From an uncultured archaeon (GTDB lineage Archaea > Asgardarchaeota > Thorarchaeia > Thorarchaeales > Thorarchaeaceae), in the NCBI GenBank assembly GCA_964648855.1, contig CAZYLT010000044.1:1-8137 (forward strand): DNA of 8,137 bases, written 5' to 3'. A program made the translations under genes and the position numbers. Shown here in pieces: positions 4,588-7,578 of this stretch (within the stretch, counting starts at the first letter, position 1; every line of letters begins with the position of its first letter). The notes beneath the pieces were generated by a model that did no database searches, was not told the DNA's origin, and worked only from the letters and a program-made list of their open reading frames with translations.

Positions 4588-4659
4588 TCAAGCACTCTTC
4601 ATTAGCAGAGCTATTGACATCTGTGCAGAAATATCTCCTTGAAGCGTAGGTGGATCTTA

Positions 4660-5634
4660 CTACTGGGTAACAATCTTGGTTTCTTTAAGACTTGGAATAC
4701 TCCACTCTTCGAGTGCCATCTGAGACTCAGTATCAATAATATCGCTATTCCTGTAAAGAGCTCGCAAGAATCTGTTGTAATCTTCAATATCCATGGTACG
4801 GACAGTTGCAAACAAACTATAGTCTCCACCAACCCTGTGCAAGTCCCACACCTCCTCGAAGAGACTCACGTATTCTGCAGTCTTTGCTATCCTACCTGGT
4901 TTTGGTTTTATCTTAAGAAAGAACTTGATGGGCAAATCCACATACTTGAAATCAATATCTATCGAGTGCCCCAAAATGACATTTTTCATGGCAAGACGAC
5001 TCATTGCCTTTGAAACCGCCGGTTGACTGATCTCCTTTTCCATTTCTTCTCCAATTCTCCGCTGAGATGGGCTCATGGGTTCTTCAGCTGTTGCCGCCCA
5101 GCGCCTGATAGTACTCAAAAGTGACCAGTCTATGTCTGAGAGCATGTACTCAGGCTGGACGTCACTTTTCACAAGGAACCCGTGAGTCTTATACGTCGCG
5201 AGAACCTGAACTAAGTCATATTTCTGTGCCTCTGTGGCGGCTACTACTTCGTCGATCTTATCGAGAAACTCATTGAAGGATTGTGATTTGCGGAAACGAA
5301 ACAGCGCAAGAAGTGAGAATTCTCCTGATATACCATCAAGTGACTCAAGTTCCTCCATGTTTAGTAATGCACGGCTAAGCGAAACCTCTCTTGGATTGCT
5401 CTTGATGAGTAGAATGCTATTCCTCTCTGCATAGACGTTAGAGGGATTGAAAATGGTCAGATAAGCCCGTATGATTCCTCGTTTCACAAGTTTTCTGATG
5501 GTGCGAGCAATCCAGTTTCTCCCCTTTTCCAGAGTTTCTGCGAGTGAGAGCAAACTGGCTCTTGAATCCTTCACTAACTGTCTGAGGAGTTCTTTCTCAC
5601 TATCCGTAATGAAATGCACTCCTTGTTTCATCAC
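4660..5634 (-). CDS. Lrp/AsnC family transcriptional regulator with two tandem HTH+RAM units
   Basis: First HTH (LVKDSRASLLSLAETL...RKLVKRGIIRAY) plus RAM (GISGEFSLL). Second HTH (SQRRIG...SQPAVSKAMSRL) plus RAM (EVWDLHRVGGDYSLFATV). Start is GTG 5634 or ATG 5631. Confidence 0.85.
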   Translation of the reverse strand: MMKQGVHFITDSEKELLRQLVKDSRASLLSLAETLEKGRNWIARTIRKLVKRGIIRAYLTIFNPSNVYAERNSILLIKSNPREVSLSRALLNMEELESLDGISGEFSLLALFRFRKSQSFNEFLDKIDEVVAATEAQKYDLVQVLATYKTHGFLVKSDVQPEYMLSDIDWSLLSTIRRWAATAEEPMSPSQRRIGEEMEKEISQPAVSKAMSRLAMKNVILGHSIDIDFKYVDLPIKFFLKIKPKPGRIAKTAEYVSLFEEVWDLHRVGGDYSLFATVRTMDIEDYNRFLRALYRNSDIIDTESQMALEEWSIPSLKETKIVTQ

Positions 5635-5707
5635 TCGTGCCTTCTATTCCAATTTCATATGGAGGATTTTAATATGTTGTTCTGTGTTCCCTGCGTATGT
5701 GATTATA
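5635..5707. promoter_or_regulatory. Divergent promoter region between the Lrp gene and ahcY; TATA-like box TTTTAATA at about 5667-5674
   Basis: 73-bp intergenic gap. AT-rich box about 35 nt upstream of the ahcY ATG, with a GTGAT RBS-like element at 5699-5703. Confidence 0.5.
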
Positions 5708-6995
5708 ATGACCGACTACAAGGTAAAAGACATCGGTCTTGCGGAAGAAGGACGCAAGCTGATTGACTATGCTGAACAGCATATGCCAGTTCTCATGCAC
5801 TTGAGGGAAAAATATGCAGATAAGAAACCCTTGAAGGGTATGAGAATCTCTGGATGCTTACATGTGACCAAGGAAACTGCTGTCTTGGTTGAAACTCTTC
5901 GGGCAGTTGGAGCTCAAGTTGCTTGGTCTGGATGCAACCCCCTTTCCACCAACGATAAAGTTGCAGCTGCTCTGGCAGCAAATGATGTACCTATATTTGC
6001 CTGGCATGGACTTGATACTGATGATTACTATTGGTGTATTGAGCAGGCACTAAGCGTTGAACCCACCCTGACATTGGACGACGGAGCGGATCTGATTTTT
6101 ACCATCCATAATAAGCGCAAAGAACTCATTGACGGCCTGTACGGTGGCTCAGAGGAAACTACAACTGGAGTTATCCGAATCAGGGCTATGGCTGCAGATG
6201 GTGCTTTGAGATACCCAATAATGGCTGTAAATGACGCCGATACCAAACATATGTTCGACAACGTATACGGTACGGGTCAGAGTTCCTTTGACGGAGTACT
6301 TCGAGCATCGGCCATTCTTATTGCTGGAAAGACCGTAGTCATTGGTGGATACGGCTACTGCGGTCGTGGTTTGGCCATGAGAGCAAAGGGCTTAGGGGCA
6401 GATGTGATTGTAACAGAGGTGGACCCTGTTCGTGCTTTGCAAGCTCGAATGGATGGATATCGTGTGATGCCAATGAATAAGGCTGCGGAAGAGGGTGACC
6501 TATTCATCACCGCTACTGGCATGAAGGATGTGATCACGGGAGAACACATGAAGGTCATGAAAGATGGAGCTATCATTGGTAACGCCGGGCATTATGATGT
6601 AGAGATCAATAAACCTGACCTTGAGAAACTCAGTACTAGCAAGGATAGAGTTCGCCAAGCATTAGATGAGTTCAAACTGAAAGATGGTCGGAGCATCTTC
6701 CTCCTAGGTGAAGGCCGCTTGGTCAATCTTGTTGCCGCTGAGGGACATCCTAGTGAGAAGTTGGCACTCGTTGCCGCTTCCTAGAAAGGTCATGGACCTG
6801 TCCTTCGCCGGCCAACTGAATGCAATGATGTGGATGAAAGAACATGGTCAGGACTTGGAGCCTGATGTGTACGAATTCCCAGAAGAGCTGGATAGAAAGA
6901 CCGCCTTGATGAAGCTAGAAACTATGGGGATCTCCATCGATAAGTGGACAGAGGAACAAGAGCGGTACGCCCGCGCATATGCGGAAGGCACTTGA
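5708..6995 (+). CDS. ahcY: S-adenosyl-L-homocysteine hydrolase (adenosylhomocysteinase); predicted join(5708..6755,6787..6995), 418 aa after removing a 31-nt BHB intron
   Basis: MTDYKVKDIGLAEEG, HMPVL, GCLHVTKET, GCNPLST, LDDGADL, EETTTG, VNDADTKHMFDNVYGTGQS, GYGYCGRG (NAD binding), GHYDVEI, GRLVNL...GHPSE. The conserved continuation VMDLSFAGQ...PEELD...EEQERY is in another frame. Removing 31 nt joins CCT AGT G|AG GTC ATG. Confidence 0.95.
6756..6786 (+). other. Candidate archaeal bulge-helix-bulge (BHB) mRNA intron, 31 nt: AGAAGTTGGCACTCGTTGCCGCTTCCTAGAA
   Basis: Central 4-bp helix CUAG(6750-6753)/CUAG(6781-6784). 3-nt bulges UGA (6754-6756) and AAA (6785-6787). Intron stem GAAGU-u-GGCA (6757-6766)/UGCC-GCUUC (6772-6780). 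Exon stem AUC(6747-6749)/GGU(6788-6790). Cleavage after the second nt of each bulge removes exactly 6756-6786 and restores the frame. Confidence 0.85.
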
Positions 6996-7042
6996 TTAAG
7001 TAAGAGTGGAAGCTAGAGGTCCTCGTCATTAAGCAATTCGTC

Positions 7043-7065
7043 GAGGAACTCTTTCCTCTTTTTTT
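7043..7065 (+). terminator. Putative ahcY terminator (hairpin plus T7 tract)
   Basis: GAGGAA-ctct-TTCCTC (7043-7058) followed by TTTTTTT (7059-7065), about 50 nt after the ahcY stop. Confidence 0.6.
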
Positions 7066-7080
7066 GCACGTCTCTGCAAA

Positions 7081-7437
7081 TATAGGGATGAATCGCTCAC
7101 TATTGGCGACTTCATATCTGTCCTTGCCGACAAGAAATCATGACCTCTTGCTAAGCGATTTTGTGAAGCATGCAAGTCGCAAGGATTCGAATTACTATAC
7201 ACCCTTATCCACGTTCCTCTTGGACATAAGGAGATTCGAAAGGCTGCACCAGGTCTGTACCGTTCGGATCATGCACCTTTCCGGCAAAATGGGATTCCTA
7301 GTTTGTTGATATCTGACACAGCAAATTTCAGATAAATGTACTATCACACTGAAGCTGATACAATTGACAAAACCGACTTTGAGTTCCTCGAGATGACCTG
7401 CAAGGCTACTGTGTTGACTGCACTTTCAACGCATTAA
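7081..7437 (+). pseudogene. C-terminal remnant of an M28 family (Zn-aminopeptidase-like) peptidase
   Basis: Not in the ORF track. Frame +1 reads ...IGDFISVLADKKS*PLAKRF...AAPGLYRSDHAPFRQNGIPSLLISDTANFR*MYYHTEADTIDKTDFEFLEMTCKATVLTALSTH*. RSDH..F...GIP and YHT..DT.D are M28 signatures. In-frame stops at 7141-7143 and 7333-7335; the N-terminal part is absent. Confidence 0.8.
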
Positions 7438-7578
7438 TGGATGTCAAATTATCCGATTGGATAACTGCCGAACGATTTATTACATAACCATTTTTACTAT
7501 TGTTATCTCGATGAGGTATGCAGGACACGATTTTTGCTATCCTGATGCGATTTTGAGTCCTATCTAGTGGTGATTGAA

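Follow-up and report, generated by a model that had tools for sequence, protein, structure and literature searches.

The stretch of DNA analysed here (the window, 8,137 nt) is the entire contig C44 of a 3.11-Mb genome, assembled into 62 contigs and 94.6% complete, from an uncultured archaeon of the Thorarchaeaceae (Asgardarchaeota), and its central feature is ahcY, the gene for adenosylhomocysteinase (AhcY), which is very probably interrupted by a short bulge-helix-bulge (BHB) intron. The nearest named relatives of the encoded protein come from metagenome-assembled genomes labelled Thorarchaeota or Promethearchaeota. The gene lies on the plus strand and starts at 5708 (MTDYKV), a position kept in relatives; the 437-aa open reading frame (ORF) that begins at 5471 is an upstream extension of it. 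Exon 1 (5708 to 6755; 349 codons and the first base of the Glu350 codon) ends in GHPS, matches PF05221 (AdoHcyase) in translation and is 96% identical to the uninterrupted ahcY of a genome of the same genus (G001). Directly after it, 31 extra bases (6756 to 6786) break the gene within the GHPSEVMD motif and shift the frame: past GHPS the unspliced frame continues for ten foreign codons to a TAG at 6782-6784, and the remainder of AhcY follows in another frame from 6789. Exon 2 (6787 to 6995) holds the last two bases of Glu350, 68 codons and the stop codon (6993-6995), and its translation (VMDLSFAGQ...AYAEGT) matches PF05221 positions 221-291. Removal of 6756-6786 joins AGU G to AG GUC, so that the message reads CCU AGU GAG GUC AUG across the predicted junction of 6755 with 6787 (CATCCTAGTG followed by AGGTCATGGAC) and carries a 418-aa ORF from 5708. 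Cuts between 6755 and 6756 and between 6786 and 6787 are the only ones that restore the frame, the GHPSEVMD motif and the 418-aa ORF.

The same boundaries emerge from the structure that the transcript can adopt. Two opposed 3-nt bulges, UGA at 6754-6756 and AAA at 6785-6787, each containing one of the predicted cuts, are split by a 4-bp central helix in which the exon CUAG at 6750-6753 pairs with the intron CUAG at 6781-6784. Beyond the bulges lie an outer helix (exon AUC 6747-6749 with GGU 6788-6790), paired in 97% of cells over the 13 aligned insert sequences, and an inner intron hairpin (6757-6780) of 9 bp with one bulged U and a 5-nt loop. Both bulges are thus flanked by helices, in the arrangement written hBHBh', with the outer helix not unique in the minimum-energy fold; that fold retains the central helix, the 5' bulge and the inner hairpin and shifts to a neighbouring outer helix. 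A longer exon-exon helix frames the BHB, its upstream arm (6727-6746) pairing with its downstream arm (6800-6819) in a duplex of -20.8 kcal/mol, and it also appears in the fold of 6720-6830. The initial annotation of this DNA had described the break, the individual BHB elements and the two cuts that yield a 418-aa AhcY, and all of these were found at the positions it gave. When the genome was scanned for a BHB-like motif with 3 outer, 4 central and 4 inner pairs, 12,285 matches were returned, which corresponds to 2.3e-5 per given site and length; since only a single site and length restores the frame, a BHB at exactly those boundaries is not due to chance.

Our preferred reading, to which we assign a probability of about 0.88, is that 6756-6786 is a BHB (tRNA-type) intron in the pre-mRNA of the only ahcY of this genome. 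The last nine bases of exon 1, the intron and the first four bases of exon 2 would fold into a helix-bulge-helix-bulge-helix framed by the longer exon-exon helix, the splicing endonuclease would cut within each 3-nt bulge, and RtcB would ligate the exons to give the mRNA for the 418-aa enzyme. Unspliced mRNA would be translated into a 358-aa product that lacks the C-terminal 68 residues. The cleavage and ligation steps themselves we infer from the comparative evidence set out below. Other classes of intervening sequence were rejected. Against a group I or group II self-splicing intron stand the 31 nt of the insert, compared with a ribozyme core of hundreds of nucleotides, and a window without any Rfam match at gathering score; an intein is excluded by a length that is not a multiple of three and by the in-frame stop.

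Given a short contig from a metagenomic assembly, the insert could in principle be an assembly or sequencing artefact. However, the identical 31 nt occur in an independent JGI contig of 91.8 kb, and NCBI assemblies as well as 12 other Thorarchaeia genomes contain closely related inserts, which leaves an artefact with a practically negligible probability and bears out the view that the insert is real DNA. JGI sample 3300034406 has the identical allele. A more biological objection is that the insertion simply broke ahcY and that functional AhcY is no longer made, as the frameshift and the stop at 6782-6784 might indicate and as the shortened products of gene callers would also fit. Yet a PF05221 search of the genome finds this single ahcY and no second copy, despite the completeness given above, and exon 2 is as constrained in intron-bearing as in uninterrupted genes (ratio of nonsynonymous to synonymous changes per site, pN/pS, of 0.153 vs 0.172, with synonymous sites near saturation). 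Furthermore, 13 Thorarchaeia genomes and three other families retain the interruption, with substitutions in the insert that compensate each other, and none of the 10 full-length intron-bearing Thorarchaeia genes carries further damage. With the predicted intron removed, all 10 are intact ORFs of 1254 or 1257 nt. Decay into a pseudogene is therefore extremely unlikely. Relaxed selection downstream of 6787 and an intact second ahcY had been named beforehand as observations that would speak against a spliced gene; what we found is purifying selection on exon 2 and a sole gene.

The comparison with relatives covered 87 genomes of the class Thorarchaeia, 83 of which have an ahcY match. An insert at the same codon is present in 13 of these 83, spread over nine genera (G000, the genome under study, and G002, G006, G012, G015, G021, G023, G045, G046, G049, G050, G059 and G079); one further candidate, G054, was rejected as an uninterrupted gene crossed by a contig break. 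Within the class the inserts come in two main kinds, one of 31 nt whose CUAG pairs with exon CCU AG, and one of 32 nt whose (A/C)UGG pairs with exon CCC AG. Outside it, three further Asgard families carry inserts at the same position that measure between 20 and 191 nt, are unrelated in sequence and each permit a BHB drawing: G036 and G103 have 34 nt, G210 has 191 nt, and G389, G390 and G391, which belong to one genus, have 20, 22 and 21 nt. Inserts of 20, 21 and 22 nt within a single genus cannot all be translated and must hence be removed as RNA. The intron is thus a patchy, multi-lineage feature of Asgard ahcY and not a peculiarity of one genome.

Several of these genes are more elaborate. 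The intron of G050 (L118:820-902) is 59 nt long and contains two hairpins, each with a CAUUCG loop motif, and looks like an internal duplication of the hairpin of the 31/32-nt intron. The genus of G389 (L136), G390 (L138) and G391 (L135:1695-1800) has a second BHB-like insert of ~31 nt located 15 nt upstream of the shared site, between GCCGCCGCAG and AAGGCCAC, and its two inserts flank a 15-nt micro-exon. In G210, a complete Asgard genome of 3.6 Mb, ahcY lies in four pieces (L134, G210:C1:1874886-1878044), with gaps at about residues 155, 181 and 350, the last being the 191-nt insert with CCAG/CUGG pairing and a 7-bp inner helix.

Covariation was evaluated by counting pairs on the 13 aligned insert sequences. 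Standard pairs fill 90.9% of the cells, compared with 79.6% after column shuffles and at most 47% when the partners are slid against each other. Six BHB pairs have changed on both sides across the relatives, five of them among the nine pairs of the inner hairpin. One central-helix pair connects the third base of the exon proline codon with an intron base and is C-G in six rows and U-A in six; since this exon-intron pair changes on both sides, the intron co-varies with a synonymous exon site. The BHB structure is under selection, its helices being kept by compensatory changes, and the same-site inserts with covarying pairs that the initial annotation had anticipated among relatives do exist.

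These observations also bear on a reading that dispenses with RNA splicing, in which AhcY would be assembled from two separately made polypeptides, or the ribosome would skip the 31 nt in the manner of phage T4 gene 60. In favour of two polypeptides, no stop interrupts the exon-2 frame back as far as a GTG at 6708, and in favour of bypass, the insert presents a hairpin followed by a stop, a succession that is also a feature of translational bypassing. However, the break falls within the most conserved motif of the enzyme, exon 2 shows neither a conserved start nor a conserved ribosome-binding context on reading of the sequences (not a formal test), and for bypass the take-off codon GAG does not match the landing codon AAG. 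Both versions leave unexplained why the 4-bp helix covaries between exon and intron, why inserts of 20-191 nt without sequence relationship keep two opposed 3-nt bulges, and how one genus comes to have a 15-nt micro-exon flanked by two such inserts; we regard both as very unlikely.

While the comparative evidence favours a spliced intron, some points weigh against it. The strict BHB, at -10.9 kcal/mol, is 4.6 kcal/mol dearer than the minimum-energy fold (-15.5), and the fold energy is no better than that of shuffled sequences (z = -0.35), for which reason we rejected fold energy as evidence for a BHB intron. The central helix is imperfect in some relatives: the 32-nt class has a G.A mismatch there, and G015 has CGAG/CUAG. 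Finally, the compared genomes are related, so that statistical tests across them overstate significance. Taken together, the interpretation put forward in the initial annotation, a functional spliced gene, is supported by every comparative test available to us.

The framing helix is stronger in intron-bearing genes: the median energy of the exon-exon duplex is -19.3 kcal/mol in intron-bearing and -13.6 kcal/mol in uninterrupted genes, a difference with a one-sided Mann-Whitney p = 0.0008 on rows that are related and not independent, and the complementarity is stronger in the intron-bearing gene in 4 of 5 sister contrasts.

The distribution of the intron is unstable. On a tree of exon 1, the intron state requires ten changes, at least seven of which are forced by well-supported branches, and sister genomes that differ in intron state include G000/G001, G023/G009 and G049/G022. 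Lateral transfer of the whole of exon 2 together with the intron was considered and rejected, as the exon-2 DNA tree keeps G000-G001 and G023-G009 as sisters. The intron is much better conserved than synonymous sites: between genera with only 32-45% identity at third codon positions, just 1-10 of its 31 positions differ. Across a 39-nt patch at the junction, G000 is 92% identical to the intron-bearing G012 and G006 and 74% identical to its own sister G001. The closest view is offered by two syntenic NCBI assemblies, a pair of strains ~97% identical over 5 kb, with the intron in one and absent from the other. Their divergence amounts to 1.7% in exon 1, rises to 19% from -48 to +15 at the junction and falls to 6.2% over the remaining part of exon 2 (Fisher p = 5.6e-8), and all 12 changes in the tract are synonymous, including an AGT/TCG serine switch. 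A clean deletion, or loss through a cDNA made from the cell's spliced mRNA, would spare the flanks, and a recombination tract over the 3' end of ahcY is therefore the more likely companion of this gain or loss. Alternatively, fast synonymous change under selection that favours or disfavours the framing helix could account for the tract.

Another observation concerns displaced copies of the ahcY 3' end, which occur in at least five genomes. Stand-alone, intron-free extra 3' ends lie at L121:2973-3170 (G005), L122:2353-2556 (G048) and L123:3912-4115 (G085), and further ones at L115:3995-4198 (G059), at L124:1338-1541 and 10192-10395, and at L125:1474-1677 (G068). They start at the His/Pro/Ser codons, some 8-12 nt upstream of where the intron sits, and are mostly found at a distance of 0.5-2 kb downstream of ahcY. 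In G085 the extra 3' end adjoins a flavin reductase gene, the gene that directly follows ahcY in G005, so that this copy looks like the displaced original 3' end. The arrangement suggests replacement of the 3' end at a recombination or integration hot spot; searches of 26 neighbouring ORFs with Pfam and PHROGs found no integrase. Because the displaced ends begin within ~10 nt of the intron site, it is tempting to speculate that the intron spreads with 3'-end replacement, as a mobile cassette: BHB mini-introns would then travel from one Asgard genome to another at a conserved proto-splice site (CCN AGY G/AG GU, the slash marking the site) by short-tract recombination over the 3' end, in place of persisting as a static relic. 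We hold this to be possible but rather doubtful. Alternatively, the intron may protect the gene against such replacement events.

The enzymes that splicing would need are encoded in the genome. PF01974 (EndA) matches at C6:63923-64177 and C4:31164-31424, two subunit genes, and PF01139 (RtcB) at C12:38433-39743, one gene. The two EndA-domain genes fit the broad-specificity (alpha-beta)2 type with an L1 loop that has been reported for Asgard EndA (PMC5829648). ARAGORN places introns in 26 of the 42 tRNA calls of the genome, mostly of ~30 nt. Moreover, ahcY is apparently not the only protein gene so divided, as the urocanase gene (hutU) is split likewise: a 30-nt BHB-like insert (G000:C24:21851-21880; L147:652-684) separates its N-terminal and Rossmann-like domains and is likely a second mRNA intron of the same genome. 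It emerged when BHB motifs across the genome were combined with a rule for merging ORFs, which gave 182 candidates, mostly false; among five checked with Pfam, urocanase was the one convincing case, at least two are fusions of distinct adjacent genes, and two have too few domain matches for a judgement. No further copies of the ahcY intron were found in the genome, the best short matches being 12-15 nt and not significant.

The initial annotation had also expected pipelines to mis-call the gene, and this is what happens. For the JGI contig that shares all 31 nt, gene calling yields a 358-aa AhcY and a separate 67-aa ORF, and many public Thorarchaeota entries named 'adenosylhomocysteinase' are only 357-382 aa long. 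The protein collection contains no 418-aa protein 100% identical to exon 1 of this organism and so yields no candidate for a spliced transcript. Given that public annotations shorten such genes, metabolic reconstructions of Asgard archaea may under-call intact genes.

Elsewhere in the window, an Lrp/AsnC-type regulator with two ligand-binding stretches (4660-5634, minus strand) lies upstream of and divergent from ahcY, and this neighbour is also kept in the JGI relative (L152). Sequence similarity to G001, from the same genus, spans 4646 to 6999 and ends at the ahcY stop codon, so that synteny is lost where the gene ends. The ~570 bp after ahcY (6996-7566) hold no recognisable gene. They are followed by an ORF that runs off the contig end (7567-8136) and in which a rubredoxin domain is joined to the N-terminal, TPP-binding domain of a thiamine-pyrophosphate enzyme.

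The literature that we searched documents splicing by the tRNA machinery for two archaeal mRNAs with a BHB only, cbf5 and HVO_1309 (PMC10485636). The initial annotation had named cbf5 as the established case; it is one, and HVO_1309 is a second. A 2023 review considers that more mRNA targets likely remain (PMC10485636). A 2026 preprint on Asgard tRNA introns does not contain the word mRNA and uses 'protein-coding' once, for neighbours of tRNA genes. No BHB intron in ahcY or in any Asgard mRNA was found in the searchable literature.

The cbf5 intron of Desulfurococcales and Sulfolobales (PMC2738675, PMC10485636) is the closest counterpart: both introns are short, of BHB type and placed in a conserved housekeeping coding sequence, both occur in hosts with an (alpha-beta)2-type EndA, and both are patchy among relatives, with gains and losses. 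They differ in gene and in phylum (Asgard vs Crenarchaeota), and the ahcY site is filled in four Asgard families with inserts of 20-191 nt, two or three per gene in some lineages. Splicing of cbf5 has been shown experimentally, whereas that of ahcY is predicted. HVO_1309 of Haloferax volcanii (PMC7714728, PMC10485636) resembles ahcY as an archaeal mRNA with a BHB, at which it is cut by EndA to give the spliced form as the main product; its host is euryarchaeal with an alpha2 enzyme, and the gene is unrelated to ahcY. The non-canonical BHB introns of archaeal tRNAs share with the ahcY intron the motif, the cut rule and the enzymes, and those of this genome also the size of ~30 nt. The host RNA is an mRNA in the case of ahcY, and the exon side of the pairing is built from synonymous codons (CCU AGU or CCC AGU) and a long exon-exon helix instead of a tRNA body.

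A more distant parallel is the splicing of eukaryotic HAC1 and XBP1, in which cleavage by Ire1 is followed by joining through tRNA ligase or RtcB. There too, a small intron is cut from an mRNA at paired stem-loops by a protein endonuclease, its removal changes the frame, and the exons are joined by tRNA ligation machinery (compare PMC8718801). Unlike the presumed processing of ahcY, this system uses Ire1 in place of EndA, is regulated by stress and lacks the BHB geometry. The ahcY intron offers a testable case for the rise, persistence and loss of introns in protein genes within the lineage nearest to eukaryotes. Seen against these systems, the mechanism is of a known kind, and the novelty lies in the gene and phylum concerned, in the repeated use of one site by four families and in the signature of recombination.
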